Assembly (NCBI GenBank): GCA_007378955.1
Contig: VMGY01000007.1
Location: forward strand, 8,644-72,643
Direction of reading: 5' to 3'
DNA from: Parcubacteria group bacterium Athens0714_12
Lineage (GTDB): Bacteria > Patescibacteriota > Patescibacteriia > UBA2591 > VMGY01
Length of the DNA: 64,000 nucleotides
A model generated the notes under the pieces. The model was not told the origin of the DNA. It saw nothing but the letters and a program-made list of their open reading frames with translations, and ran no database searches. Shown piece after piece: positions 979 to 64,000 of the stretch; position 1 is the first letter of the stretch; every line of letters starts with the position of its first letter. A program made the position numbers and the translations under genes.

Positions 979-3660
979 ATGAAAAAAGGCAAAAAAATGA
1001 ACAAAGCCAAAACAGAGAAGTTCGTCTATTTTTTCGGCGCCGGCAAATCCGACGGCAATGGCAAGATGAAAGATTTATTAGGCGGCAAAGGAGCGAACTT
1101 GGCGGAAATGACCAATATCGGCGTGCCCGTGCCCCCCGGTTTTACGATTATCACAAAGGTTTGCAATTATTTTTCTGCTCAAGGAAAAGTTCCAACCGAG
1201 TTAAACGGCCAGATGAGAACAGCTTTAATAAAATTGGAAAAGATTGCTGAAAAGAAATTCGGCGATGTCGCGAATCCTTTATTGGTTTCTGTCCGTAGCG
1301 GCGCTAAATTTTCTATGCCCGGCATGATGGATACGATTTTAAACCTCGGCCTGAACGATAAAACAGTTGAAGGATTGGCTGAATTGACCAATAACGCCCG
1401 TTTCGCTTACGACGCTTACCGCCGTTTTATTCAGATGTTTGGCAATGTGGTTTTGGGAATTGAAAAAGAAGTTTTTGAAGAAATTTTAACTCACAAAAAA
1501 GAAATTTTAAAAATAAAATTAGACATAGAGATGAATGAAACCGCTTTGAAAGAATTGGTCAGAGAGTTTGAGGAAACGATTAAAGAAAAAACAAAAAAGA
1601 CTTTTCCTCAAGATGTTTATCGCCAGCTGGAAATGGCGCGGGACGCGGTTTTTAAATCATGGAATAATCCGCGGGCCGTCACTTACCGACGGCTTAATAA
1701 AATCGCCGATGATTTGGGCACAGCGGTTAATGTTCAGGCAATGGTTTTCGGCAATATGGGCAATGATTGCGCCACGGGCGTCGGCTTTACCAGAAATCCG
1801 GCCACTGGCGAAAAAGTTTTTTACGGCGAATATTTATTAAACGCGCAGGGCGAAGACGTGGTTGCCGGCATTCGCACTCCTCGCCAAATTGCTGACTTGA
1901 AAAAAGAAATGCCCAAAGTTTTCGAGCAATTAAAAAAGATTACCAATAGATTAGAGAAGGATTATAAAGACGTGCAGGATTTTGAATTTACGGTGGAAAA
2001 AAATAAATTGTATATGCTTCAGACCAGAAACGGAAAAAGAACCGCTCAAGCGGCGGTTAAAATCGCCGTTGATATGGTCAAGGAAAAATTAATCAAAAAA
2101 GAAGAGGCATTGACGCGGCTTGAGCCGGAACAAATAGACCAGTTGCTCCATCCGATTTTTGACCCAAAGATTAAAATTAACGCTATTGTCAAAGGCCTGC
2201 CGGCTTCACCGGGCGCGGCCGTGGGCAAGGTTGTTTTTACGGCTGATGAAGCGGCGGCAGTCGGCGATAAGGAAAAAGTTATTTTAGTCCGCACGGAAAC
2301 TTGCCCTGATGATATACATGGCATGGATGCCGCTCAAGGAATTTTAACTAGCCGCGGAGGAATGACTTCGCACGCCGCGGTTGTCGCCAGAGGTATGGGC
2401 AAATGCTGTGTCGTTGGCTGCGAAGAAGTAAAAGTTAATGAAAAAAAGAAAGAATTAAAAATTAAAGATAAGACAATTAAAGAAGGTGATTGGATTAGTT
2501 TAAATGGTTCAACCGGAGAAGTGATTTTAGGAAAAGTCGCCACGATTGAGCCGAAATTAAGTGGCGAGTTCGGCGAATTTATGAAATGGGCGGACCAAAT
2601 CCGCAAATTAAAAGTTCGGGCCAATGCCGACATCCCCCACGACGCTCAAGTGGCGCGCGGTTTCGGCGCTGAAGGAATCGGCTTATGCCGTACTGAACAT
2701 ATGTTTTTTGCCGAAGACAGGTTGCCGATGATGCAGGAAATGATTTTGGCGGATAATGAAAATGCTCGCCGTAAAGCTTTAAATAAATTATTAAATTTGC
2801 AGAAAAAAGATTTTAAAGGATTGTTTAAAGAAATGAAAGGTTATCCGGTGACGATTCGTTTATTAGACCCTCCTTTACATGAATTTTTGCCCAAAAGGGA
2901 AGAATTAATGAAGGAAGCGGCGGTAATGAAAGCGACGGGAGTTGATAAAAAAGAGCTTGAAAAGAAAGAAAAATTATTAATCAGAGTTGAAGAATTGCAC
3001 GAAGTAAATCCAATGTTAGGCCATCGAGGCTGCAGATTAGGCATTGTTTATCCGGAAATTACCGAGATGCAAGTTAAGGCGATTGTATCAGCCGCTTGCG
3101 AATTAGCCAAGGAAAAAGAAAAAATTATTCCGGAAATAATGGTGCCTTTGGTCGGGCATGTCAATGAATTAAAAAATCAAAAAGAGCTGATTAAAAAAGT
3201 CGCCCAAGAAACGATGAAGAGCTATGGGGTGAAAATAAAATATATGGTCGGCACGATGATTGAAGTTCCGAGAGCGGCGGTGACTGCCAATGAGATTGCT
3301 CAAGAGGCGGAATTTTTCTCTTTCGGCACTAATGATTTGACACAAATGGGTTTTGGTTTCAGCCGCGACGACGCCGGCAAATTCATAAAAATTTATATTA
3401 AAGATAAAATTTTAGAAGAAGACCCATTTCAGGTTTTAGACCAAAATGGCATCGGCCAGTTAGTCAAAATAGGTGTAGAAAAAGGCAGAAAAACCAAAAA
3501 AGATTTAAAGGTGGGAATTTGCGGCGAGCATGGCGGCGAACCAAGCTCGGTGATATTTTGTCACAATGTCGGCTTGAATTATGTAAGTTGTTCGCCTTAT
3601 CGCGTGCCCATTGCCCGCTTAGCGGCCGCTCAAGCGGTGATTTTTGGAAAAAAGAAATAA
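979..3660 (+). CDS. ppdK: pyruvate, phosphate dikinase
   Basis: 893 aa; N-terminal YFFGAGKSDGNGKMKDLLGGKGANLAEM, PEP-utilising and phosphohistidine regions (GGMTSHAAVVARGMGKCCVVG), C-terminal TIM-barrel motifs. Confidence 0.93.
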   Translation: MKKGKKMNKAKTEKFVYFFGAGKSDGNGKMKDLLGGKGANLAEMTNIGVPVPPGFTIITKVCNYFSAQGKVPTELNGQMRTALIKLEKIAEKKFGDVANPLLVSVRSGAKFSMPGMMDTILNLGLNDKTVEGLAELTNNARFAYDAYRRFIQMFGNVVLGIEKEVFEEILTHKKEILKIKLDIEMNETALKELVREFEETIKEKTKKTFPQDVYRQLEMARDAVFKSWNNPRAVTYRRLNKIADDLGTAVNVQAMVFGNMGNDCATGVGFTRNPATGEKVFYGEYLLNAQGEDVVAGIRTPRQIADLKKEMPKVFEQLKKITNRLEKDYKDVQDFEFTVEKNKLYMLQTRNGKRTAQAAVKIAVDMVKEKLIKKEEALTRLEPEQIDQLLHPIFDPKIKINAIVKGLPASPGAAVGKVVFTADEAAAVGDKEKVILVRTETCPDDIHGMDAAQGILTSRGGMTSHAAVVARGMGKCCVVGCEEVKVNEKKKELKIKDKTIKEGDWISLNGSTGEVILGKVATIEPKLSGEFGEFMKWADQIRKLKVRANADIPHDAQVARGFGAEGIGLCRTEHMFFAEDRLPMMQEMILADNENARRKALNKLLNLQKKDFKGLFKEMKGYPVTIRLLDPPLHEFLPKREELMKEAAVMKATGVDKKELEKKEKLLIRVEELHEVNPMLGHRGCRLGIVYPEITEMQVKAIVSAACELAKEKEKIIPEIMVPLVGHVNELKNQKELIKKVAQETMKSYGVKIKYMVGTMIEVPRAAVTANEIAQEAEFFSFGTNDLTQMGFGFSRDDAGKFIKIYIKDKILEEDPFQVLDQNGIGQLVKIGVEKGRKTKKDLKVGICGEHGGEPSSVIFCHNVGLNYVSCSPYRVPIARLAAAQAVIFGKKK

Positions 3661-3715: not shown

Positions 3716-3913
3716 ATGCCTTACAAAATTGAACAAGATTATGAAAAATGCATTGGCTGCGGGAGTTGTACTTCTGTCTGCGCCGGCAATTGGGAAATGA
3801 AAGACGACGGCAAAGCGCATCCAGTCCAAGAAGAAGTTGAAGAAATTGGTTGCAATAAAGAAGCGGAAGAAATCTGCCCGGTCCAATGCATTAAAATTAG
3901 TCCGCAAAAGTAA
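3716..3913 (+). CDS. small 4Fe-4S ferredoxin
   Basis: 65 aa; CIGCGSCTSVC and C...CP cysteine motifs. Confidence 0.7.
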   Translation: MPYKIEQDYEKCIGCGSCTSVCAGNWEMKDDGKAHPVQEEVEEIGCNKEAEEICPVQCIKISPQK

Positions 3914-4158
3914 TTGAAAATAAAAAACCGGGTGATGTCTTTTTTAGGCCATCGCTCGATTTTTTATTTTATTATTTTTTTACATTTATTTGCCTAAAAG
4001 AATTTTTAGGGAAAACATAGTTAATCCAATAACCAAATGCGTATAAGTTTGCATCTTTTTCACCCTCATTTTTCATTCATTTTTTTAAAAAAGTAAAGAG
4101 CAAAAGATGGCTTTAAAAAATGTAATAATAGACTATGTTTTTGTAAAATTTTATTTTT

Positions 4159-4737
4159 ATGATATTATTTAATTATATGGATATGTTTGAAATAACTATT
4201 TGCGGGCGCGGCGGCCAAGGGTCAAAATTGGCAGCCCAAATTTTAGCCGAAGCGGCGCTGGAAGACGGAAAATACAGCCAGGCTTTTTCCCAATACGGGC
4301 CGGAAAGAACAGGCGCGCCGGTTACCAGCTACGCGAGAATTTCCAATCAGCCGATTTTGACGCATCAGCCGATTATAAAGCCCAACGCGGTTTTGATTTT
4401 AGATTCAAGTTTGTTGAAAGATTTGAATTTTAATAATGACGAAGTTTTGATTATTAATATTTGCCCTAATATAAAATTAGAAAAATTAAAAAATAAAACT
4501 TACAAGATAGACGCTTCTGACATTGCTTTAAAAATTTTAGGCAAGGACTTGCCGAATGTCGCCATGCTGGGAGCTTTGATAAAAATAACCGATTTATTGA
4601 AACTGCCTTCTTTGGAGAAAAGAATAAAAGAATATTTTGCCAAAAAATATAACGACAAAATGGCGGAACAAAATATTAAAGCGTTGCAAGAAGGTTATAA
4701 AACAATTTTATGCCCGGTAGTACAATTTCGAAAATAA
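4159..4737 (+). CDS. porG: pyruvate:ferredoxin oxidoreductase gamma subunit; the C-terminus is extended by 7 codons that read into the inserted element (native end predicted ...KTILC*)
   Basis: ICGRGGQG nucleotide-binding motif, PorG-like length; start uncertain (M at 4159, 4177 or 4183). Confidence 0.8.
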   Translation: MILFNYMDMFEITICGRGGQGSKLAAQILAEAALEDGKYSQAFSQYGPERTGAPVTSYARISNQPILTHQPIIKPNAVLILDSSLLKDLNFNNDEVLIINICPNIKLEKLKNKTYKIDASDIALKILGKDLPNVAMLGALIKITDLLKLPSLEKRIKEYFAKKYNDKMAEQNIKALQEGYKTILCPVVQFRK

Positions 4738-5061
4738 TTGTTAAACAAAAATTCGTCGCATATTACTGGGTTTACATTTTAGAAAGTGTAAACGATAAAA
4801 AAAGATATATAGGATTCGCTACTGATATCAAAAAAAGAATTAGAGAGCATAATAGCGGCATGGTTGTTTCCACAAATTATAGAAAACCGTTAAAATTGAT
4901 TTACGCCGAATTATGTTTAAACCAGAAAGATGCGAGAAGAAGAGAAAATTATTTTAAGAGAACTGGCGGTCGAAGATTTTTAGCCAAAAGACTAAAAGAG
5001 TATTATAAAATAAATAACAATTTTGAATAATAAATAATTCGAAGTTGTACTACCGGGTATG
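4709..5061 (+). mobile_element. small TIR-bounded element (4713-5057, 345 bp) carrying one GIY-YIG ORF, flanked by a duplicated TATG (4709-4712 and 5058-5061). It sits exactly at the porG stop / porD start overlap
   Basis: 20-bp terminal inverted repeats cccggtagtacaatttcgaa / ttcgaagttgtactaccggg (19/20). Removing the element restores an overlapping ...TTATGTTAAAA junction (porG TAA overlapping porD ATG). Confidence 0.75.
4710..5030 (+). CDS. stand-alone GIY-YIG nuclease domain protein (YhbQ/COG2827-like), encoded inside the TIR element; its start codon is the duplicated target ATG
   Basis: 106 aa; YYWVYILES...KRYIGFATDIKKRIREHN...R...N motif order typical of the GIY-YIG catalytic domain. 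Confidence 0.75.
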   Translation: MPGSTISKIIVKQKFVAYYWVYILESVNDKKRYIGFATDIKKRIREHNSGMVVSTNYRKPLKLIYAELCLNQKDARRRENYFKRTGGRRFLAKRLKEYYKINNNFE

Positions 5062-7665: not shown

Positions 7666-7700
7666 TTTAGTTATAAGTTATTGGTTGTAAGTTGTAAGTT
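7666..7700 (+). repeat. GTTRTAAGTT short tandem motif (gttataagtt attg gttgtaagtt gtaagtt) adjacent to tRNA-Lys
   Basis: Copies of the same motif family at 7785-7820, 26061-26092, 29171-29203 (reverse) and 57511-57548 (reverse). Confidence 0.6.
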
Positions 7701-7705
7701 ATCCC

Positions 7706-7779
7706 TGGTGCCCCCACCAGGATTCGAACCTGGGTTTACTGCTTAAGAGGCAGCTACTCTACCATTGAGTTATGGGGGC
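7706..7779 (-). tRNA. tRNA-Lys (anticodon CTT)
   Basis: Manual fold: acceptor gccccca/tgggggc, anticodon stem ctgc/gcag with loop ctCTTaa, T-loop ttcgaat, encoded CCA. Confidence 0.85.
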
Positions 7780-7784
7780 TAAAA

Positions 7785-7820
7785 ATTTAGTTGTAGGTTG
7801 TTGGTTGTAAGTTGTAAGTT
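7785..7820 (+). repeat. GTTGTAAGTT short tandem motif adjacent to tRNA-Arg
   Basis: ttagttgtaggttgttggttgtaagttgtaagtt. Confidence 0.6.
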
Positions 7821-7826
7821 TATCTG

Positions 7827-7901
7827 TGGTGCCTTCGGAGGGATTCGAACCCCCAACAACTGCTCCGAAGGCAGTCGTGATATCCATTTCACTACGAAGG
7901 C
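7827..7901 (-). tRNA. tRNA-Arg (anticodon TCG)
   Basis: Manual fold: acceptor gccttcg/cgaaggc, anticodon stem actgc/gcagt with loop ctTCGga, T-loop ttcgaat, encoded CCA. Confidence 0.8.
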
Positions 7902-8088
7902 GTAAAATCATTTTTGTATTTTTTATCGCGTTTTGAAAAGTTTATCTCAATTCTACGGTGTTTTGGGCTTATTGTCAATAATTTTCGCGTGCGAAATTAA
8001 TTTTTATTAAATCAAAAAGAATAGTTAAAAAAGACCCTTAAGCGGGCCTTTTTTAGTTTTTAAAAACAAATTCGGCGTTATAATTACC

Positions 8089-8156
8089 TTGAATTACGAA
8101 ATAGAGTGACCCCGAAAGAGGAGGGGGTTTGTGAAAAAACGCGTTTCGTAATTCAA
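8089..8156. repeat. inverted repeat ttgaattacgaaa ... tttcgtaattcaa (13-bp arms, 42-nt spacer); member of a family with a second, larger copy at 48608-48740
   Basis: Read directly; lies between the tRNA cluster and the 3' end of pilT. Confidence 0.55.
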
Positions 8157-8186
8157 AATAATTAAGTTTCGTCGATTTATAAAAAT

Positions 8187-9236
8187 TTATTTCAATTCCT
8201 GCGGATTGAACATATAGGCTAAAGCAATTTGCTTGTCAATTAATTTTTCACTGACGAGCCTTTTTAAATCTTGGTCCATACTGACCATACCTTCCTTAGC
8301 GGAAGTTTGAATCACGGCTTTTATTTGGGAAATTTTATTTTCCCTGATTAAATTTCCTACGGCCGGAGTGTTGATTAAAATTTCCCGCGAGGCGATTCGG
8401 CCATTGTCAATTCTGGGCAATAATTGCTGGGAAATCACTCCTTGCAGGGAAATGGATAATTGCAATCTAACTTGAGTTTGCTGGTGAGGAGGAAAAACAT
8501 CAATAATTCTGTCTATGGTTTGGGAAGCGTTTTGAGTGTGCAGAGTGGCTAAAATCAAATGCCCTGTTTCCGCTAAAGTCAAAGCAGTGCCGATAGTTTC
8601 CAAATCGCGCATTTCGCCGACCATAATTACATTCGGGTCCTCTCTGACTACATGTTTTAAAGCATCTCCAAAAGAGAGTATATCACTTCCTAATTGGCGC
8701 TGGCTGATGATGCTTTTTTTAGGAAGAAAAACATATTCAATCGGGTCTTCCATAGTAACTATATGGCATGAGCGTTCTTCATTGATTAAATTTATCATTG
8801 CCGCCAGAGAAGTGGATTTTCCGCAGCCAGTCGGTCCGGTGATTAAAACCAGCCCTTGATTTAAGCGGGCTAATTTATAAGCGATTTTAGGCATTAAAAT
8901 TTCTTCCATATTAGGAAGAGAAGGAAGGATAACTCTCGCCGCTAAAGCCAAATTGCTTTTTTCCCAATAAACATTTATTCTGAATCTGGCTATCCCGTCT
9001 GATTGGTATGAAGTGTCTAATTCTCTCCGAGCTATTAATTTTTCTTTTTCTTGCGAGGTCAGGATGGAAAAAATTATTTCTTGAATCGTGTCTTTGGTCA
9101 GAATATTAATTTTGTCAATTTCTTTCAATTGCCCGTCAATTCTTAAAACAGGCGGCTTGCCGACTATTAAATGAACGTCAGAAGCTTTATTTTGAGCGGC
9201 AATTTTGAAAATCTCGTTGAGGTTTAAATTTTTCAT
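8187..9236 (-). CDS. pilT: type IV pilus retraction ATPase PilT
   Basis: 349 aa; Walker A GPTGCGKST, Asp box and His box; PilT-like N-terminus ASDVHL. Confidence 0.88.
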   Translation of the reverse strand: MKNLNLNEIFKIAAQNKASDVHLIVGKPPVLRIDGQLKEIDKINILTKDTIQEIIFSILTSQEKEKLIARRELDTSYQSDGIARFRINVYWEKSNLALAARVILPSLPNMEEILMPKIAYKLARLNQGLVLITGPTGCGKSTSLAAMINLINEERSCHIVTMEDPIEYVFLPKKSIISQRQLGSDILSFGDALKHVVREDPNVIMVGEMRDLETIGTALTLAETGHLILATLHTQNASQTIDRIIDVFPPHQQTQVRLQLSISLQGVISQQLLPRIDNGRIASREILINTPAVGNLIRENKISQIKAVIQTSAKEGMVSMDQDLKRLVSEKLIDKQIALAYMFNPQELK

Positions 9237-15579: not shown

Positions 15580-17325
15580 ATGAAAGAATCAAAATTAAAA
15601 AAATATCAGCAGAAAAGAAAATTTGAAATCACGCCGGAGCCGGAAGGAAAGATAGAAAAAAGCGAATTAAAAAGGTTTGTCGTCCATAAACACCAAGCTC
15701 GGCATTTGCACTATGATTTTCGTCTGGAAATGGAGGGTGTCTTAAAATCTTGGGCCGTGCCCAAAGGAGTGCCGGAGAAGCCAAATGTAAAAAGACTTGC
15801 CATTGAAGTAGAAAATCATCCGGTTTGTTTGGCTCCTTTTACAAAAGTTAATGCCCCGGGAGGCGAAAAAAGTATTAGAAAAAATTTTTCTAAAATTTTT
15901 TCTTATAATTTTCAAAATAGGAAAGTAGAATCTAAAAAAATAACAGCTTTTTCTAAAAGAGAAATAAATAATGATGAAATTACTTTATATTTTCATCAGG
16001 GAAAACCATTAAAAAAATTGTGTTGTACCCTGAATCATGAAATATTTGCTCCTCAAGGTAAAAAACAAGCATTTCAACTTAAAAAAGATGATTTTATTTT
16101 TATTTTAAAAGAGACATTTCAAAAAAGGAAGAAGGAGTTACTTTTAGGTATGCTTTTGGGAGATGCGGGATTAGAAAGCAACGGTTCTTACAGTAACACA
16201 GCCATTGTTTCTTTTACCCACTCTATTTCTCAAAGAGATTATTTACTTACAAAATGCAGACTGCTTAATTTAAAATTTCATTTTCAGAATTATCCTTCAA
16301 AAATACAAAGAATTAAAAATTATACTGCCTACTTTAAACCATCAATCAGGGCGGTGAGTAAGACTTACCCTTTTCTTTATGATCTTTATCTACTTTGTTA
16401 TAAAAACGGAAGAAAAACTCTTACTAAAGAATGGCTAAATCAATTAAGTGAAGTTTCTCTGGCTTATTTTTATCTCGACGACGGCAGTTTATTAAAAGAT
16501 AAAAATAAAATGAACATTCATGCTATAGAGCTATCTACCCAAGGATTTACAAAGAAAGAACAGTTATTACTTAAAGAAGTGATAGAAAAAAAATTTGGTC
16601 TTAAGACTAATATATATCGAATAAATAGTGGAAGCGGTTGGAGGTTAAGAATTTCTAGCGTAAAAAAATTTTTTTCTTTAATTTCCCCATGGATTCCTTT
16701 AAAAATTATGGATTATAAGATAGGTAAGCATTGTCCTGTTTGTGGAAATTCAGTCCCTGGTTTTAAAAATCATTTTTGTTCTTATTGTTTGTTGAATTAT
16801 TTAAGAAAATTAAAATATCCTTCTTATGCCGATTATTGTAGGTTGAGGTATTATGAGAAAAGAGGTGGCGTTGCCCCAAAAACTTTTCAGAATTATTTTG
16901 GAAGTTGGGCTAACGCCATTAAATTAGCAAAAGAAAATAAATTAGTAGTTTCAGGCCAGAGGGGGAGTAAAGTAAAAGAAATTAAAAATGAAAGAATGAA
17001 AAAGGATATAGGAATAGCCAAAATCAGAGAGATTAGAAAAAAATGGAATCCCGAAAGAAAGTATGCACATGATATTCAAGTTAAGGATAATCATAATTTT
17101 TTTGCAAATGGAGTTTTGGTAGGAAATTCTTACATTGATTTTTTTGGCGTTATTCCCGAAGGTTCTTACGGCGCCGGCAACGTGGAAATTTGGGACAAGG
17201 GAGAATATGAATTATTGGAGAAAAGCAAAAAAACGATTAAATTCAGATTAAAGGGCGAAAAATTAAAAGGCGAATATATTTTGGTTTTAATGAAAGAAAA
17301 TAACTGGCTGATTTATAAATTGTAA
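15580..17325 (+). CDS. stand-alone LigD-type 3'-phosphoesterase (PE) domain protein interrupted by an intein (host exteins 82 + 65 aa)
   Basis: Extein N: RFVVHKHQARHLHYDFRLEMEGVLKSWAVPKG...VENHPV; extein C: SYIDFFGVIPEGSYGAGNVEIWDKGEY - LigD PE domain signatures. Confidence 0.75.
   Translation: MKESKLKKYQQKRKFEITPEPEGKIEKSELKRFVVHKHQARHLHYDFRLEMEGVLKSWAVPKGVPEKPNVKRLAIEVENHPVCLAPFTKVNAPGGEKSIRKNFSKIFSYNFQNRKVESKKITAFSKREINNDEITLYFHQGKPLKKLCCTLNHEIFAPQGKKQAFQLKKDDFIFILKETFQKRKKELLLGMLLGDAGLESNGSYSNTAIVSFTHSISQRDYLLTKCRLLNLKFHFQNYPSKIQRIKNYTAYFKPSIRAVSKTYPFLYDLYLLCYKNGRKTLTKEWLNQLSEVSLAYFYLDDGSLLKDKNKMNIHAIELSTQGFTKKEQLLLKEVIEKKFGLKTNIYRINSGSGWRLRISSVKKFFSLISPWIPLKIMDYKIGKHCPVCGNSVPGFKNHFCSYCLLNYLRKLKYPSYADYCRLRYYEKRGGVAPKTFQNYFGSWANAIKLAKENKLVVSGQRGSKVKEIKNERMKKDIGIAKIREIRKKWNPERKYAHDIQVKDNHNFFANGVLVGNSYIDFFGVIPEGSYGAGNVEIWDKGEYELLEKSKKTIKFRLKGEKLKGEYILVLMKENNWLIYKL
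15826..17127 (+). mobile_element. intein (434 aa) with LAGLIDADG homing endonuclease domain and a C-terminal Cys-rich zinc-finger-like segment
   Basis: Begins at Cys (CLAPF), ends ...DNHNFFANGVLVGN followed by +1 Ser; two LAGLIDADG motifs (LLGMLLGDAGLES, LAYFYLDDGSL); in-frame within the PE-domain gene. Confidence 0.8.
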
Positions 17326-26058: not shown

Positions 26059-26060
26059 AA

Positions 26061-26092
26061 GTTATAAGTTATTAGTTGTAAGTTATGAGTTG
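26061..26092 (+). repeat. GTTATAAGTT-type short tandem motif immediately upstream of tRNA-Ser
   Basis: gaagttataagttattagttgtaagttatgagtt. Confidence 0.6.
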
Positions 26093-26097
26093 CCCCC

Positions 26098-26188
26098 GGT
26101 GGGGTGCGAGAGTGGTTTAATCGGGCGGTCTCGAAAACCGCTGTCGCCTCATCGGCGACCGCAGGTTCAAATCCTGCCCCCACCGCCA
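26098..26188 (+). tRNA. tRNA-Ser (anticodon CGA), long variable arm
   Basis: Manual fold: acceptor ggtgggg/ccccacc, anticodon stem gcggt/accgc with loop ctCGAaa, 18-nt variable arm, T-loop ttcaaat, encoded CCA. Confidence 0.8.
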
Positions 26189-48607: not shown

Positions 48608-48740
48608 TTGAATTACGAAACACTTAAAACTAAACCGTCATTGCGAGCGAGCCAGCAAGTATGCGAAGCAGGAATTTCGTCAAAAGCGAAATTATTTAAT
48701 AGGGCGAGCAATGACACCTTTGGAGCGTTTCGTAATTCAA
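48608..48740. repeat. about 130-bp composite palindromic element: outer arms ttgaattacgaaacac / gcgtttcgtaattcaa, inner arms ccgtcattgcgagcgagcc / gggcgagcaatgacacc, central hairpin gaatttcg...cgaaatt
   Basis: Nested inverted repeats read directly; shares outer arms with 8089-8156 and the GTCATTGCGAG motif with the 58102/62037/63937 repeats. Confidence 0.6.
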
Positions 48741-57157: not shown

Positions 57158-57503
57158 TGGTGGAGATGATGGGAATTTAACCCATATCCAAAAAAGAGAG
57201 AGAAAAACTTCTACCAACGTAGTTTGATTTAAGTTTTCGGATTAGAAGTAGAAATCAAACAAAAATTCTTTCCAATCCAAACCTATTTTATTTCAGCAGC
57301 TTAAATTAGGTTTTTTAAGTTGCCTAATCCTATAAATATAATATCTAATTTCTTAATAGGAATAGGAAATTAAACAGCGACTTGCTTTACGCAGTCGCGT
57401 ATGCATAAGCGTTGTTTTTGGCACTTATGTTTTTAGCGGCTTTACGAACCGCCCAACGATTGGCCATTTTTGCCTCTGTTTTTTGTCGATTTAGATCATC
57501 CCC
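57158..57503 (-). ncRNA. ssrA: tmRNA (SsrA); predicted tag peptide (A)KNNAYAYATA* (tentative)
   Basis: 5' end GGGGATGATCTAAATCGAC, tRNA-like 3' end ...GGGTTAAATTCCCATCATCTCCACCA pairing with the 5' end, internal ORF GCC AAA AAC AAC GCT TAT GCA TAC GCG ACT GCG TAA; adjacent to smpB. Confidence 0.75.
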
Positions 57504-57548: not shown

Positions 57549-57998
57549 TTAAAATTGTTTCATTTTTTGTTTTATTTTTTTGTCTAAATCTCGTTTTTTA
57601 ATGAACTCTTTTTTATTCCACTTTTTTCTGCCCTTGGCTAAGCCGATTTCAATCTTTATCAGTCCGTTTTTAGTATATACTTTTAAAGGCAGGGCTGTCA
57701 AGCCTTTCTGTTGCAGACTGCCGATTAAAGAAGCGATTTCCCGTTTATGAAGCAGGAGCTTTTTGTTTTTTAGCGGATTGTAATTTTTTTGAGCCGTAAA
57801 AGCCGGCGGGTAAGGCGCGATATGGCACTTAATGAGCCAAGCTTCGCGCCCAATAAGTTCAACATAACTGCCTTGAAGGTTTATTCCGCTCATTTTGGCG
57901 GATTTAACCTCTGGTCCGGAAAGAACCAGCCCGGCCTCATATTTTTTTAAGATTTCGTAATCAAAATAAGCTCGCTTGTTTTCAGCTAAAATAGGCAT
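57549..57998 (-). CDS. smpB: SsrA-binding protein SmpB
   Basis: MPILAENKRAYFDYEILKKYEAGLVLSGPEVKS typical SmpB N-terminus; start set at ATG 57998 (the track's ORF extends to 58106 through repeat DNA). Confidence 0.88.
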   Translation of the reverse strand: MPILAENKRAYFDYEILKKYEAGLVLSGPEVKSAKMSGINLQGSYVELIGREAWLIKCHIAPYPPAFTAQKNYNPLKNKKLLLHKREIASLIGSLQQKGLTALPLKVYTKNGLIKIEIGLAKGRKKWNKKEFIKKRDLDKKIKQKMKQF

Positions 57999-58101
57999 AA
58001 TTTTTATAAATTTTTTGAATCGCGAAACATTTAAAATCAATCTGTCATCGCGAGGAGCTTCCGGATTGCTTCCTGCCTCACCCCAGCGCAGGCGTTTCGT
58101 T

Positions 58102-58195
58102 CGCAATGACAGGGTAAAAGATTGTCATTGCGAGGAGCCCAGCAGGGCGACGCGGCAATCCCGTTCGTTAAGCCGCGGGATTGCTTCGGCTGACG
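58102..58195. repeat. left copy of a perfect 94-bp inverted repeat (partner 62037-62130), itself built of two hairpins (cgcaatgaca...tgtcattgcg and gcaatcccg...cgggattgc)
   Basis: 94/94 identity with the reverse complement of 62037-62130, verified base by base; related partial units at 58021-58101, 48637-48717 and 63937-64000. Confidence 0.9.
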
Positions 58196-58307
58196 GTATT
58201 TAGTATTTCGGATTTATTCCCATTATACCATCTTGCTTTGATTTTTAAAATTAGTTATTATAAAGGTATAGCATGATTCGTTTTAATTCATAATAATTCG
58301 CGAATTT

Positions 58308-59450
58308 ATGAAAATAGGAATTGATTGTCGGACAATTTTAAACCCTGAAAAAGGAGAAAGAGGCGGAGTGGGGCATTATACATATCAATTAGTCAGACAT
58401 TTGCTTAAAATTGATAAAGAAAATCAATACGTTCTTTTTTTTGACCGAAAAATAAGAGAACATAAAATGGCCAAGTTCCTCCAGCCCAATTCGCGGGTTA
58501 AATTTTTTCCCTTTATTCAATACGCTAAATTCTTGCCTCTCAAATATAATAATTATTTAATCAGCGCTGTTTTAGAGAGCGAGAAATTGGATATATTTCA
58601 TTCCCCGATTTTGTCGCTTCCTTCAAGTTATAAAGGCAATTGCGTGATTACCGCCCATGGCTTCGCCAGATACAGGGGTTTGAAATATTTTCCCAAAGAA
58701 GAATTTTCCAAAGCTAAAAAAATAAAGCCCTTGGCGATAAATCAAGCAAAGAAAATAATCGCTCCTTCTAAATTCGTCCAAAAAGAATTGCTTGAATTAT
58801 TTGATTTTAAAAAATCCGATATCTCAGTGATTCATCATGGCTTGGATGAAAGATTTCTCGTAAGGGGATCTGAAGCGGAAAGAAAAAAAATATTGGATAA
58901 GTATAAAATTAGTAAAAAATATATATTTTTTCTGGGCACTTTAGAGGCTCGCAAAAATATCGCTGGTTTGATTGAAACTTTTGAATTTTTAAGAGAAGAG
59001 TTGAAATTGGACTGGCAATTGGTTTTGGCCGGCCACCGAGGATTTGGGTTTAAAAATATTGATAACAGGATTAAAAAAAGCAAGCATAAAAAGAATATTA
59101 TTTTAACCGGTTATGTTTCCGGCGATGATTTAGACGCTTTATTCGGTGAGGCAGAGGTTTACATTTTCCCTTCTTTTTATGAAGGTTTTGGTTTGAGCGT
59201 TATTGAAGCGATGGCAAAGGGAGCGCCAATAATTACTTCCAATACCACCGCTTTTCCGGAGATTGCCCATAATGCCGCTTTATTAGTCAGTCCCGATAAT
59301 TCCAAGGAAATGAAAGAAGCGTTAAAAAGAATTTTATTTGATGAAGATTTAAAACAAAATTTAAAAAATAAAGGGATAAAGAGGGCTAAGGAATTTTCTT
59401 GGGATAAATGCGCTAAGCAGACTTTACAAGTTTATAAAGAATCTTTATAA
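58308..59450 (+). CDS. glycosyltransferase family 4 (GT-B fold, group 1)
   Basis: C-terminal EGFGLSVIEAMAKGAPII motif. Confidence 0.8.
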   Translation: MKIGIDCRTILNPEKGERGGVGHYTYQLVRHLLKIDKENQYVLFFDRKIREHKMAKFLQPNSRVKFFPFIQYAKFLPLKYNNYLISAVLESEKLDIFHSPILSLPSSYKGNCVITAHGFARYRGLKYFPKEEFSKAKKIKPLAINQAKKIIAPSKFVQKELLELFDFKKSDISVIHHGLDERFLVRGSEAERKKILDKYKISKKYIFFLGTLEARKNIAGLIETFEFLREELKLDWQLVLAGHRGFGFKNIDNRIKKSKHKKNIILTGYVSGDDLDALFGEAEVYIFPSFYEGFGLSVIEAMAKGAPIITSNTTAFPEIAHNAALLVSPDNSKEMKEALKRILFDEDLKQNLKNKGIKRAKEFSWDKCAKQTLQVYKESL

Positions 59451-59550
59451 TAATTTTAAGCAGCATTCGCGCTCAGTAAAAATTTTATTAATTTAATTTA
59501 TAATTTATTTACGCGAAATTAAAATCTCGCGTAAAACAAAGGAGATAATT

Positions 59551-60093
59551 ATGCCGATTAGAAAATCTTCCGTGGATGAAAGAGAAAAAATATTAAATCT
59601 CGTTCATCGGGCGGAAAAAGAAGAAGCGAGTGTTCCCTTTATGCCCGCGGCTAAAAAAAGGTCGAATGGTTTTTTAAAAACATTGGCAATTGTCGCGATG
59701 TTGATATTGGTTGTTTTTATTATTATTTATGGCGTTTCAAAATATACCAAAACAGACTTTTTAAAATTAGGAAACTTAGGAAAGCAGACAGGCGAAACAT
59801 GGCAAGCTGTTTTTTTAAGCAACGGGCAAGTCTATTTTGGGCACATAACCAAACGAACCAAAGAAGAAATAACTTTGAAGGATATTTATTATTTGCAGGT
59901 TAACAAGCAAATTCAACCCAGTGAAGAAAACCAAGATATCCAGCCAGAGTTGAGTTTAGTGAAATTGGGAAATGAATTGCACGGCCCGGTGGATGAAATG
60001 AAAATTAATCGTTTCCATATTTTATTTACCGAAGGATTAAAAGATGATTCGCGAGTGGTCGGCGCTATTAAAGATTATAACACGAAAAAATAA
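59551..60093 (+). CDS. hypothetical bitopic membrane protein
   Basis: 180 aa, single TM helix (residues about 42-62). Confidence 0.45.
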   Translation: MPIRKSSVDEREKILNLVHRAEKEEASVPFMPAAKKRSNGFLKTLAIVAMLILVVFIIIYGVSKYTKTDFLKLGNLGKQTGETWQAVFLSNGQVYFGHITKRTKEEITLKDIYYLQVNKQIQPSEENQDIQPELSLVKLGNELHGPVDEMKINRFHILFTEGLKDDSRVVGAIKDYNTKK

Positions 60094-60249
60094 AAGCCTG
60101 CTTTTTCAGTAAAAATTATCCCATCATTTAATAAAAAAATGATGGGATTTTGTTTTGAAAATTTATTCACGTAAAAAATAAATCACCATTATTTTTTGAA
60201 ATTAATTTTTTGCTGTGGATAACTCAATTTATTTTTTTAAAGCAATATT

Positions 60250-60278
60250 CCCGTATCGCTCAGCCGATACGGTTTTTT
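60250..60278 (+). terminator. rho-independent terminator (ccgtatcg ctcagc cgatacgg + T6)
   Basis: 8-bp stem plus T-run. Confidence 0.65.
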
Positions 60279-60446
60279 CGCTTAAAATAAGGGTTTTTTA
60301 CTCTTTTATTTTTTTTTAGATGATTTTTTCATTTCTCGTTTTTTTATTCTTTTTCCATATGGTAAAAGAACATTTTTTGTTTTATAATAAAGATAAGGAA
60401 AATAATAGAATAAAAGATTAAAAAATAACAATATCGCTTATCCGAT

Positions 60447-62018
60447 ATGGAAGAAAATAAAAGAAAAAACAATTCAAAAAATTTTTATTTTAAAACCTTG
60501 AAAGAAGAGGAAATTTTAACATTGAGAGATTTCCAAGGTGATAGAAATAAGCGTATTTTATTGTCCGAAATTTACCGATACACCCCTTACTCCCAAGAGT
60601 ACCTTTCTTTGAGGGCGAGGCAGGGAAAATTGAAAGCGGTTAAACTGGGAAGGGATTGGATGACCACGGTTAATTGGATGAGGGATTATTTGGACGGAGT
60701 TGATAATAATAAAAATATTGATAGCAAAACGCGGAGCGATAAAAAAATAGTTTTTCCATCTTTCAATAAAGTTTTTTTAGGGTATGGCGTTTTGGCGTTA
60801 ATCGTTTTTTGCCTCGTCTCTTACTCGGCGTTTTATTGGCGAAATTGGGCGCCGCAAGTAAAAAATAATTTTTTATCTTTGAGTTCGGCGGCGGAAAGAA
60901 ATTTTACGGACATATCAAAAATTTTTAAATCCGATTATCGCGATAAAACTGAAAAAATAGGAATGATGATTGTTGGCTCTTTAAAGCCAATGAAAAAATT
61001 TCCAAAAGTTTTATCAGAGGAAAGCGATTTGGCGAAAAATAAAATAATAACATTTAAAAAAAATATATTTTCTTTTTCCCAAAAATTAACAAAAGGAATT
61101 AAAGAAGAAATTAAAAAATCAATCGTAAAAGTAAAAGAAGAAAATTTAAAAGCTCGCTGCGCGGTTTTGCGAGCCGTAAATTTTAACTATAGAAAAATAA
61201 AGCAAATTATGGTTTCCAGCCAAAGAACCATTCGGCAAGTTGGCAATTTTGCGGACAATAGCCGATTAGCGGTTAGGGACAATTTTTTTAAAGCCGCGGC
61301 AAGATTATTTTTTTCTTTGGACAAGAGTTCAGAAATTTTAATTCTTGCCGGTAAAAATGCAAATCAATTTTTGGGAAATGGGACGGCAAATTTAATCTTC
61401 GCGGGCGAAAGAGGAACAAAAAATTTATTTTCCGCGTTAGATAATGGAGCAGAGGTTTTAATTTTTACTGTTGAAAAAGGAAAACAAAGTTTAGATAAAG
61501 GATTGGCAATTTTAGTTTCAATTAGCAGAAGCGGAACAAAAAGTTTGTTTTTCGCTTTAGACAGGGGGTCGGAAAGTTTAATTTCTTTTGGCGGGAATAT
61601 TCGTTGTTCCGTGAATGATAAAGGATATATGATTCAAGGTTCGGTAAAAAAAGGATGGTCAATTTCTAATAGTTTTCTGAGTAGAGCATGGAATAAATTC
61701 AGCGATAAGTTAAGCGATGGCTATTTAACCCTTTTGAATTATTTAATTCCGGAAAGAACTTTATACGGCTATCCTTCGCTGATTGCGAAATCGGAAAATG
61801 GCGGCGCGGCTGAAAACGGTATGGTTATTTTTCCTTTAATGGGGCAGGAGGGCATTTCGCGGAATAAATATCTTTTAGCCAAGATAGAAAAAGCTTTCAG
61901 CGACGAGGTGATATTAAAACCGTCAGAACAAAAAGGAGTGGGAATTGTGGAGCCGACCGAGCCGGCTGTTCCAGGCGAAAAATATCTTTATATGATGGTG
62001 CCGATTAATGAAAAATAA
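60447..62018 (+). CDS. membrane protein with N-terminal excisionase-family (HTH_17-like) DNA-binding domain, one TM helix and a C-terminal region of short tandem peptide repeats
   Basis: YSQEYLSLRARQGKLKAVKLGRDWMTTVNWMRDYL resembles the Xis/AlpA-type HTH; repeats ...GTKNLFSALDNGAEVLIF / GTKSLFFALDRGSESLISF. Confidence 0.45.
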   Translation: MEENKRKNNSKNFYFKTLKEEEILTLRDFQGDRNKRILLSEIYRYTPYSQEYLSLRARQGKLKAVKLGRDWMTTVNWMRDYLDGVDNNKNIDSKTRSDKKIVFPSFNKVFLGYGVLALIVFCLVSYSAFYWRNWAPQVKNNFLSLSSAAERNFTDISKIFKSDYRDKTEKIGMMIVGSLKPMKKFPKVLSEESDLAKNKIITFKKNIFSFSQKLTKGIKEEIKKSIVKVKEENLKARCAVLRAVNFNYRKIKQIMVSSQRTIRQVGNFADNSRLAVRDNFFKAAARLFFSLDKSSEILILAGKNANQFLGNGTANLIFAGERGTKNLFSALDNGAEVLIFTVEKGKQSLDKGLAILVSISRSGTKSLFFALDRGSESLISFGGNIRCSVNDKGYMIQGSVKKGWSISNSFLSRAWNKFSDKLSDGYLTLLNYLIPERTLYGYPSLIAKSENGGAAENGMVIFPLMGQEGISRNKYLLAKIEKAFSDEVILKPSEQKGVGIVEPTEPAVPGEKYLYMMVPINEK

Positions 62019-62036
62019 AATAGTGTCATCGCGAGG

Positions 62037-62130
62037 CGTCAGCCGAAGCAATCCCGCGGCTTAACGAACGGGATTGCCGCGTCGCCCTGCTGGGCTCCTC
62101 GCAATGACAATCTTTTACCCTGTCATTGCG
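62037..62130. repeat. right copy of the perfect 94-bp inverted repeat (partner 58102-58195)
   Basis: See the left copy. Confidence 0.9.
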
Positions 62131-62169
62131 GCAAGAAGCAATCCCGAAGATAAATAATTTATAAAAATA

Positions 62170-63918
62170 ATGAGACAGAAAATATTAGTAATAGTATTAA
62201 TAATTTACCTGCTCTTTCCAATTCATTTAATTTTGGCCGAAATGACCAGCAGTAATTATAAAATAGAAGTTGATTCCCTGAATTTCAGCGGCGCCGAGCT
62301 TGACGCGGGCGATATTTATAAAATGAGTTCTACTTTGGGAGAAGTGGCAGTAGGTTATGGAAGTTCTGGTTACGCGATTTTTTCCGGCTACAGATATATG
62401 GTCAATGTATATTCTAATCCGGTTGAAGAAGCGGGAGCCGTTCCATCGGTTCCCGGGTCGGGACCGTTATCTCCGGAAACCATCCCCCCGCTTATTTCAG
62501 AAATTAAATATTCCAGCCCTGATAGCGAAACTATTATTATTGAATGGGAAACTAACGAGCCGACTACCTCGGAATTGGATTTCGGCCTGACACCGGAATA
62601 TGAATTGGGGAGATTGAAATCAAGGCCGGAAGATTTAACAAAAAAGCATAAAATTATTATTAAAGATTTAAAACCGGACACAAAATATTATTTCCGGCCG
62701 CGGGCGAAAGATTTGCAGGGCAACGAAACTCTAAGTAAAGGATTTATTTACGATACGCCGGATAATATCGCGCCAGCCAATGTAAGCTCTTTAAAAGCAA
62801 GATCAAATGATAAACAAATAACTTTGCGATGGATTAATCCTTTTGATGAAGATTTCGCGGGCGTAAAAATCCAGAGAAGTTTGGAATATTTTCCCTTGTC
62901 CGTTGACGAAGGCGAAACGGTTTATCAGGGCGAGGCAATGAGTTTTATAGATAAATATTTGGAGAACAACAGAAAATATTATTACACGATTTTTAGCTAT
63001 GACGGCAATAATAATTTTTCATCAGGCGCGATTATCAGCGCCGCGCCGCAAAGCCGGTATGTCCCGCCTGTCGCTCCGCCTGAAATTCCGCCAGGAGTCA
63101 TTCCTTCTGAAGTGGTCCCATTTTTACCGCCAGAATTTGCTCCGCCTATTCCGGAAGAAAATATAGAAATTTTGGATTTTAGCGATATTATATCTTTTGA
63201 AATGGCAAAAGGGACATTAAAGATTGAGCCGGATGAAAAAAATAAAATAAAAATTTTGCCTAATGTCGCCTTAAATCTTTTCATCGCCAAAGAAAAATTA
63301 TCGCCTTTTTTGAAAAGCATTATTGCGACTGTCGGGGAATCTTCTTATTTATTAAAAATTAATCAAGAAAAAAGCGTTTATGAAGTTTCCTTTATTACGC
63401 CCGGAAATGTCGGCAAATACGCTTTAAACGCTTTGGTTTTAATTTATAAAGACGGAAAAATTCAAGTGGCAAAAGGCGAGTTGGAAGTGGAAGAACCGGG
63501 TTATGTCTGCCGGCAATCAACGGCCAAAAGACTTCCCGGCGCCGAAGTAACGCTTTATCATTTTAATCAAGAAAAAAACGTTTGGGAAAAATGGCCAGCC
63601 AGCCAATATTTTCAAGTTAATCCGGAAATCACTGACAATAAAGGAGAATATATTTTTATGGTTAACCCCGGTGAATATTATTTAACAGTTTCAAAAGAAG
63701 GATATGATTTTAAAAAAACAGAAATTTTTGAAGCGAAAAATATAATCAATCAAAAAGTCGGTTTAGAGCCAATTCCGTTTTTTTCCAAAATTAAATCATA
63801 TTTTGACTGGCAGCCCATTATTGATTTTTTCGGCAACAGCGCAAGAGTCCTAATCGCGATAATAGTTTTTATAATAATTTTTTTGCTATTTAAATTAATC
63901 CCGTCGTGGAAATCATAA
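62170..63918 (+). CDS. large surface protein: signal peptide, two FN3-like domains, Pro-rich linker, C-terminal Ig/CarboxypepD_reg-like domain and C-terminal TM anchor
   Basis: Domain-like motifs (TIIIEWETNEPTTSELDFGLT...YYFRPRAKD; ITLRWINPFDEDFAGVKIQR...YYYTIFSYDGNNN), PPVAPPEIPP linker, C-terminal hydrophobic helix. Confidence 0.5.
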   Translation: MRQKILVIVLIIYLLFPIHLILAEMTSSNYKIEVDSLNFSGAELDAGDIYKMSSTLGEVAVGYGSSGYAIFSGYRYMVNVYSNPVEEAGAVPSVPGSGPLSPETIPPLISEIKYSSPDSETIIIEWETNEPTTSELDFGLTPEYELGRLKSRPEDLTKKHKIIIKDLKPDTKYYFRPRAKDLQGNETLSKGFIYDTPDNIAPANVSSLKARSNDKQITLRWINPFDEDFAGVKIQRSLEYFPLSVDEGETVYQGEAMSFIDKYLENNRKYYYTIFSYDGNNNFSSGAIISAAPQSRYVPPVAPPEIPPGVIPSEVVPFLPPEFAPPIPEENIEILDFSDIISFEMAKGTLKIEPDEKNKIKILPNVALNLFIAKEKLSPFLKSIIATVGESSYLLKINQEKSVYEVSFITPGNVGKYALNALVLIYKDGKIQVAKGELEVEEPGYVCRQSTAKRLPGAEVTLYHFNQEKNVWEKWPASQYFQVNPEITDNKGEYIFMVNPGEYYLTVSKEGYDFKKTEIFEAKNIINQKVGLEPIPFFSKIKSYFDWQPIIDFFGNSARVLIAIIVFIIIFLLFKLIPSWKS

Positions 63919-63936
63919 AAAAGTTCATTTCCCTGT

Positions 63937-64000
63937 CATTGCGAGCGAGGTCGCCAGTAGGCGGCCGACGAAGCAATCCCGTTGTCTATCGCGTCCCCGC
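63937..64000. repeat. another unit of the GTCATTGCGAG ... GAAGCAATCCC repeat family (runs to the window end)
   Basis: cctgtcattgcgagcgaggtcgccagtaggcggccgacgaagcaatcccg. Confidence 0.6.

Follow-up and report, generated by a model that had tools for sequence, protein, structure and literature searches.

The 64,000-nt stretch of the Parcubacteria group bacterium Athens0714_12 genome analysed here (hereafter the window) contains a pair of 94-nt sequences, at 58102-58195 and 62037-62130, that are exact reverse complements of one another (94 of 94 nt) and bracket 3841 nt encoding a GT4 glycosyltransferase, a 180-aa protein (p180) and a 523-aa protein (p523). Comparison of this locus with sibling assemblies, with more distant relatives and with published repeat families indicates that the pair probably represents two recently copied or homogenised clusters of CGTC-type repetitive extragenic palindromes (REPs) flanking an ancestral three-gene block. 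The perfect 94-mer, with its sharp borders, is the remnant of a longer and slightly imperfect repeat that has undergone two assembly-specific deletions, whilst inversion of the bracketed segment and phase variation, put forward when the locus was first read from sequence alone, are unsupported.

The pair is the only inverted repeat of 40 nt or more with greater than 80% complementarity in the whole window, which excludes chance as its origin. Folding of the 94-mer gives three local hairpins (z = -4.4 and -4.8), namely a head-to-head one of 10 bp, a GCCC/GGGC mini-hairpin and another of 11 bp, and diverged members of the same family were located at about 58043-58111, 48638-48717 and 63935-64000. 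The sequence-only reading was therefore correct as to the perfect pair, the composite hairpin structure of its arms and the existence of diverged relatives elsewhere in the window.

The 94-mer as the remnant of a longer repeat

Five sibling assemblies from the same population (L001, L002, L176, L174 and L003) were retrieved by exact-protein match. Three of these (L001, L002 and L176) are MEGAHIT contigs from the European Nucleotide Archive; L174 is the NCBI contig VMGP01000009.1, belonging to a metagenome-assembled genome (MAG) named Parcubacteria bacterium Athens1014_10; and L003 is a 3927-nt Logan contig that comprises exactly the bracketed segment and ends inside both arms. Over 7-10 kb the flanks of the repeats match the window at 99.9-100% identity, but the repeat regions differ. 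L001, L002 and L176 contain 37 additional nt (cctcgcaatgacattttccgctcatttcgtaattcaag), also present in L003, after window position 58195, and a further 25 additional nt (aacgaagcgcctgcgccggggtgag) after window position 62130. As both pieces complete hairpins and lengthen the homology between the arms, the window form is to be regarded as the deleted one. At both junctions of the three MEGAHIT assemblies the full-length repeat extends over 151 nt with five mismatches (96.7% identity) and includes a perfect run of 106 nt; the mismatches, at positions 4, 15, 27, 37 and 144, lie near the ends, and a run of this length has a probability of about 0.012 under random placement of mismatches.

The 94-bp repeat thus has abrupt borders because 37 nt on one edge of the core and 25 nt on the other are absent from this assembly. 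The earlier statement that the flanks of the two copies are unrelated holds for the sequence of this window, but not for the siblings, in which the borders are seen to have been made by the two private deletions. Recent duplication or gene conversion, which had been deduced from perfect identity within an otherwise diverging repeat family, is retained in part: the two copies resemble each other far more closely than they do the other members of the family, and the 151-nt repeat with its 106-nt perfect core speaks for it, whereas the signature of 94 perfect bp between unrelated flanks is private to this assembly.

The NCBI MAG contig L174 carries two other deletions, of 60 nt (most of the first hairpin) and 53 nt, the latter taking with it a head box and the final 11 codons of the gene for p523. 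In this deposited MAG (L174 11500-11560, compared with window 61985-62037) p523 accordingly appears as a 512-aa version, which may be an annotation-relevant assembly error. When 1-2 nt of microhomology are allowed, all four deletions share two internal boundaries, immediately before GCAATGACAGGG and between GGCTGAC and GCCTCGC, and the indels are confined to these REP clusters, the surrounding sequence of about 15 kb being otherwise 99.9-100% identical. By-eye inspection of the alignments revealed no common cleavage motif at the ends of the four deletions.

On balance we lean, though not strongly, towards regarding these deletions as assembler artefacts rather than real alleles. The other view, which we consider somewhat the less probable, is that the losses of 37, 25, 60 and 53 nt are real products of REP-unit excision or processing akin to that of Pseudomonas REPINs, with the clusters being actively processed in the population. 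Both the two boundaries common to all four deletions and the restriction of indels to these clusters are in keeping with real events, as are the REPIN excisions, some of them incomplete, documented in Pseudomonas population data (PMC3337134) and the hairpin- and cruciform-driven deletion expected for REP dimers (PMC3733652). Yet both junctions are full-length in the three MEGAHIT assemblies, as are both inner flanks in the Logan contig, which is at unitig level, and only the duplicated pair is affected, the single-copy units at 48638 and 63935 being spared, which points to the handling of repeats by the assembler. One of the deletions, moreover, removes the final 11 codons of a gene, and the boundaries fall at differing positions within the units with no motif common to the far ends, such that no site-specific cleavage is evident. 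A stronger proposal, that the deletions are real and, given head and tail boxes conserved exactly across phyla (Patescibacteria, Alphaproteobacteria, Cyanobacteria, Campylobacterota-like contigs and high-GC soil contigs), reflect active excision of CGTC REPs by a widely shared trans-acting enzyme, appears unlikely; if true, it would mean that CGTC REPs, for which no transposase is known, are being cut or excised now in a streamlined Patescibacteria genome. Whichever is the case, the REP clusters are the places at which assemblies of the same population disagree (four small deletions in two assemblies), and the practical lesson is that sharp-bordered perfect repeats in MAG-derived sequence should be compared with sibling assemblies before a biological reading is placed upon them.

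Anatomy and family identity of the REP clusters

A fuzzy two-box scan (GTCATTGCGAG, 2-34 nt, GAAGCAATC; shuffle expectation 0.5 per window) identified at least nine units at four intergenic sites of the window and L001 taken together. Units follow the pattern Y-GTC-ATTGC-GAG, succeeded by a covarying mini-hairpin and GA(C)GAAGCAAT-CC(A); those of the window have TGTC or CGTC heads and CCC or CCG tails. Each full-length arm comprises three units of alternating orientation, s1(-), s2(+) and s3(-) on the left and s3'(+), s2'(-) and s1'(+) on the right, in which long and short units are paired in head-to-head (s1-s2) and tail-to-tail (s2-s3) dimers. The left arm (58102-58195, plus strand) is made up of the s1 head box, then a spacer of 11 nt (gggtaaaagat), then s2 and lastly the tail half of s3, and the right arm (62037-62130, minus strand) has the same content in reverse complement.

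In the left cluster, s1 (58064-58111, minus strand) is a long CGTC/TGTC-tagged singlet, TGTCATTGCGAACGAAACGCC...GGAAGCAATC; s2 (58123-58163, plus strand) reads TGTCATTGCGAG-GAGCCCAGCAGGGCGAC-GCGGCAATCCC and contains the GCCC/GGGC mini-hairpin; and the s3 remnant (58177-58195, minus strand) retains the tail box CGAAGCAATCCC and CGTCAGC. The s3 head box and the right arm of an enclosing hairpin of a second family (family A, below) constitute the 37 nt that are missing after 58195 by comparison with L001, L002, L176 and L003. An orphan REP head box, TGTCATCGCGAGGAGC (58043-58058, plus strand), forms the 5' arm of hairpin 1 and is absent from the right cluster. There, s3' (62024-62056, plus strand) is complete and of the short type (TGTCATCGCGAGGCGTCAGCCGAAGCAATCCC), s2' (62069-62109, minus strand) is identical to s2, and s1' (62121-62146, plus strand) has lost 25 nt internally after 62130 by comparison with L001, L002, L176 and L174. 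Of the diverged copies, that at 48638-48717 (plus strand) is a CGTC-REP dimer enclosed by a family-A hairpin, the arms of which are at 48608-48621 and 48727-48740, and that at about 63935-63981 (plus strand) is a singlet, with a second in direct orientation beyond the end of the window (L001 15721-15762).

Family A is an AT-rich hairpin family with conserved arms (TTGAATTACGAAAC / GTTTCGTAATTCAA) and a variable interior. One left arm, TTGAATCGCGAAAC at 58015-58028 (plus strand), encloses the left REP cluster in its full-length form, the corresponding right arm being found only in L001 (9871-9887). Family A thus encloses CGTC-REP units twice, around the left cluster and around the 48638 unit, in a nested arrangement, and occurs alone at 8089-8156, downstream of a T2SSE ATPase gene.

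Published CGTC REPs (PMC3733652) have a CGTC head, often TGTC (with a variant CCTC), and mostly a CCA unpaired tail; their stems begin with A-T and are 8-9 bp long, with loops of 4-5 nt. They are multi-copy and extragenic, form head-to-head and tail-to-tail dimers that are often heterodimers, are known from five phyla, lie mostly between unidirectional and convergent open reading frames (ORFs), and "apparently lack a dedicated transposase" (PMC3733652). Neisseria dRS3 and Rickettsia RPE-4/RPE-6 both belong to the superfamily (Di Nocera, De Gregorio and Rocco 2013, BMC Genomics 14:522). Judged by sequence, the units described here fit this CGTC-tagged superfamily, the match being to the published definition of the superfamily as a whole: the terminal CGTC/TGTC head, the CCA-type tail, multi-copy extragenic head-to-head and tail-to-tail dimers, and a sequence from a listed host were all found. 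The last of these is a copy, CGTCATTGCGAGCGTCGCGAAGCAATCCAG...CTCGCAATGACG, on plasmid pNL2 of Novosphingobium aromaticivorans DSM 12444, where it lies between two dioxygenase genes; N. aromaticivorans is on the CGTC-REP host list (PMC3733652 supplement). The consensus dimer also matches plasmids of Novosphingobium, Methylosinus, Methylocystis, Aulosira, Fischerella and Calothrix, where it is never annotated, and a replicon of N. resinovorum matches it in at least 40 places.

A metagenome scan for GTCATTGCGAG-N40-70-CTCGCAATGAC returned at least 120 stretches (on at least 120 contigs), and the properties of these copies agree with the assignment. The GC content of the REP-bearing contigs ranges from 35 to 72% among the at least 120 matches listed; the unit boundary is sharp, falling between Y and GTCAT at one end and between ATGAC and R at the other; and half-units fall into size classes of 28 nt and 34-36 nt among the copies listed. 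An ATTGC/GCAAT stem is present in the half-unit hairpin of 50 out of 50 sequences, so that the helix starts with A-T before passing into a G/A-rich internal loop and an inner helix of variable length, often a GCGNAGC mini-hairpin. The inner helix shows compensatory changes, with two column pairs having 18 and 11 both-side changes among the 50 sequences. Heads are CGTC in 156 of 236 units (66%) and TGTC in 66 (28%), and CCA is the commonest tail (126 of 236, 53%), CTC and CCC being next.

Two features weigh against the assignment: the stem here has 5 bp and an internal loop, unlike the plain 8-9 bp stem of CGTC REPs, and the left cluster stands between the divergent genes smpB and GT4, which is atypical for REPs (cf. 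PMC3733652). Searches against Rfam 15 identified only tRNAs and tmRNA at gathering score in the window, and nothing relevant at E<=10 over the full-length locus; full-text literature searches returned no match for the DNA boxes or for peptides encoded by them, and nothing specific on REPs or miniature inverted-repeat transposable elements (MITEs) in the candidate phyla radiation (CPR). A cluster-specific 28-mer had 0 matches in a metagenome scan. Patescibacteria, not among the five phyla given for CGTC REPs in PMC3733652, is a new host phylum for a known kind of repeat, the family occurring also on cyanobacterial plasmids and on a Sulfurimonas-like contig; finding CGTC-type REPs in a streamlined Parcubacteria genome of roughly 35% GC extends the host range of the superfamily.

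Copies within one contig, in either orientation, resemble each other more than copies on different contigs, which implies that a similar pair a few kb apart is normal in such repeat populations; 96.7% identity over 151 nt is at the high end for neighbouring copies. Tandem arrays of near-identical CGTC-REP dimers were also observed, with eight copies at a 121-nt period in L082 (Ga0207055_1035, 3969-5019) and three copies at 124 nt in L116 (1897-2223). A metagenomic contig with inverted copies 3.5 kb apart (L067, Ga0137414_1173597) was considered as an analogue of the present locus and rejected, since all 5.4 kb of it form a single large palindrome, in which many inverted repeats of 90-100% identity are nested; this is most likely an artefact of fold-back assembly or of amplification.

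No enzyme could be linked to the repeats. Among the window ORFs there is no Y1 transposase, integrase or resolvase, as the sequence-only reading had already said of recombinases; no target-site duplication of 2-9 nt was detected in 133 units, and the genes beside 119 metagenomic copies belong to generic families only, with no recurrent one. Recent MITE transposition, another of the origins first suggested, is accordingly upheld only insofar as the spread of a small repeat is the closest of the options then offered, the units being without target-site duplications. A single Y1_Tnp gene, 450 nt from a unit, occurs in 609 kb of REP-bearing contigs among the matches listed. This contig, L108 (Ga0074197_1000066), is Sulfurimonas-like and has a GC content of 36%; its 8.6 kb contain seven CGTC-REP units together with a Y1 transposase of the RayT type (coordinates noted: 700-860, 2222-2250, 2699-3439 and 8046-8612). 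It was the one match when E. coli RayT was compared with the ORFs of the retrieved sequences, as a trial of REP-associated tyrosine transposases (RAYTs) as mobilisers of CGTC REPs, and E. coli RayT matched none of the REP-bearing plasmids. The L108 enzyme was rejected as a cognate transposase, as no unit lies near its homologues of 70-96% identity at eight loci in Sulfurimonas, Sulfuricurvum and Sulfurospirillum, which agrees with the published lack of a dedicated CGTC transposase.

Switch, mobile cassette or ancestral gene block

The history of the bracketed genes can be examined in relatives. In L005, a Patescibacteria MAG whose SmpB is 53% identical to that of the window, smpB and a GT4 homologue (45% identity) are transcribed divergently, the latter being followed by a homologue of p180 (36% identity). 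The smpB-GT4 intergenic region of L005 contains no CGTC unit, only unrelated AT-rich tandem repeats; at 3760-3880, where the window has its REP cluster, an AT-rich unit of about 28 nt (tagatctaaataaaaaccatgttttat) is repeated four times in tandem. In L004 a GT4 homologue lies near smpB in the same relative orientation. The first two bracketed genes have therefore kept their ancestral position and orientation. The gene in third place in L005 is related neither to p523 nor to the 582-aa protein (p582) encoded beyond the right arm, and the only partial relative of p523, P0002, has a different and short context. In the contig search with SmpB the nearest species representative was 49-53% identical, and the repeat is absent from all 50 SmpB-matched loci.

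These observations bear directly on the proposal that recombination between the arms flips the GT4/membrane-protein block and so generates heterogeneity or phase variation of surface glycosylation, which we regard as improbable. A perfect core of 94 nt (window) or 106 nt (full-length form) is long enough for homologous recombination, the mismatches are placed at the ends (P about 0.012) as if the centre had been exchanged between copies, and L003 breaks in both arms, as would be expected of a flip-flop but equally of a plain repeat. Against this, the 3.8-kb segment has the same orientation in all five of the assemblies that span it (window, L001, L002, L174 and L176), GT4 is in its ancestral orientation with respect to smpB, and no invertase or recombinase is encoded in the window. 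Furthermore, the 112-nt GT4 upstream region (58196-58307), the would-be promoter site, and the terminators at 60118-60272 all lie inside the segment, so that inversion would alter no promoter-gene link and would not rewire expression. More improbable still, and by a wide margin, is a composite mobile element in which the arms act as terminal inverted repeats mobilising the three genes, also envisaged in the sequence-only reading. Inverted terminal repeats do surround a discrete gene set, and a tmRNA gene, a frequent target of islands, is nearby at 57158-57503; but the segment does not adjoin the tmRNA 3' end, smpB lying between, its GC content is unremarkable, its outer borders have no direct repeats, and there is neither transposase nor integrase. 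The family units have no target-site duplications, the right arm is truncated and without one head box, and, above all, GT4 and the 180-aa gene stand beside smpB in the same orientation in a repeat-free relative at about 45-53% protein identity.

The reading we favour, that of copied or homogenised REP clusters around resident genes, would place two oppositely oriented copies of a roughly 150-bp three-palindrome cluster in the intergenic spaces on either side of the gene block. Either one cluster was copied recently to the other site, or both were homogenised by gene conversion, and either course could have left the inverted repeat of 151 nt, 96.7% identity and 106-nt perfect core. Any action of the clusters would presumably be through hairpins in DNA or RNA, in line with what is known of REPs; by analogy, they may protect the 3' end of the mRNA of the 523-aa gene or cause attenuation there, and may provide structure in the divergent smpB/GT4 region. 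They would also be sources of local instability rather than a programmed switch, and RecA-type recombination could occasionally invert the 3.8 kb as a neutral by-product.

Genomic setting and comparison with known systems

The window has a GC content of ~35%, shared by the bracketed segment, and the arms of the inverted repeat are GC-rich. Upstream of the left arm the order is tRNA-Asp, L20, IF3, tmRNA (57158-57503, minus strand) and smpB (57549-57998, minus strand), the last being the left flanking gene, divergent from GT4. The first bracketed gene, at 58308-59450 (plus strand), encodes the GT4 glycosyltransferase, a label secured by a Pfam match, and is syntenic with smpB in relatives. It is followed by the gene for p180 (59551-60093, plus strand), a protein with one hydrophobic segment and a homologue downstream of GT4 in L005, then by terminator-like hairpins at 60118-60148 and 60251-60272, and by the gene for p523 (60447-62018, plus strand). 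Neither p180 nor p523 has a direct Pfam match at E<=0.01; the HTH_17 label given earlier to the p523 N-terminus is plausible through homologues, in which PF12728 (HTH_17) is present. p523 and Athens101410_442 of Parcubacteria group bacterium Athens1014_10 share 100% identity. After the right arm comes p582, a 582-aa fn3/prealbumin-like protein (62170-63918). Scans for promoters and terminators gave no excess over shuffles, with the exception of the two hairpins after the 180-aa gene.

The window is otherwise ordinary CPR chromosome, with genes for PFOR, RNase Y, type IV pili, Wzy-like ligases and glycosyltransferases. Elsewhere within it, an intein carrying a LAGLIDADG endonuclease interrupts a LigD_N (3'-phosphoesterase)-like protein at 15580-17325 (Pfam: LigD_N in two stretches, LAGLIDADG_2 and Intein_splicing). 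A 42-nt repeat (AGTTATAAGTTATTGGTTGTAAGTTGTAAGTT..., 74-86% identity) adjoins three tRNA genes (Lys, Arg and Ser) at 7669-7710, 7789-7830 and 26060-26101, on the 3' side of the two minus-strand tRNA genes and on the 5' side of the plus-strand one.

Programmed invertible segments (hin, fimS, shufflons and Bacteroides promoter inversions) have short inverted repeats of about 14-30 bp and an adjacent dedicated recombinase, and switch a promoter or a coding end. The present locus resembles them in having inverted repeats around a few kb with surface-related genes, but differs in that its repeats are REP clusters of 94-151 bp, with no recombinase, no switching logic and a single orientation. With MITEs and composite transposons it shares short, structured, non-coding, multi-copy intergenic units and nested insertion (CGTC units within family A), whereas it shows neither target-site duplications nor any relationship between terminal inverted repeats and a transposase, and the enclosed genes are syntenic chromosome. 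The likeness to the bacterial interspersed mosaic elements (BIMEs) of E. coli REPs and to Pseudomonas REPINs is closer, extending to alternating imperfect palindromes in two size classes, dimers able to form a long hairpin, greater similarity of copies within a genome, the absence of target-site duplications and excision-like micro-deletions; in contrast to the REPIN/RAYT system, the head here is CGTC/TGTC in place of the RAYT-associated GT(A/G)G (GTAG/GTGG), and the window contains no RAYT. CGTC REPs share with the units described here the unpaired CGTC/TGTC head, apparently the A-T start of the stem, the CCA-type tail, head-to-head and tail-to-tail heterodimers, an extragenic and multi-copy distribution over several phyla and the lack of a flanking transposase, the differences being the host phylum, the 5-bp outer stem, the G/A internal loop and variable mini-hairpin, and the CCC/CCG tails of the window units.

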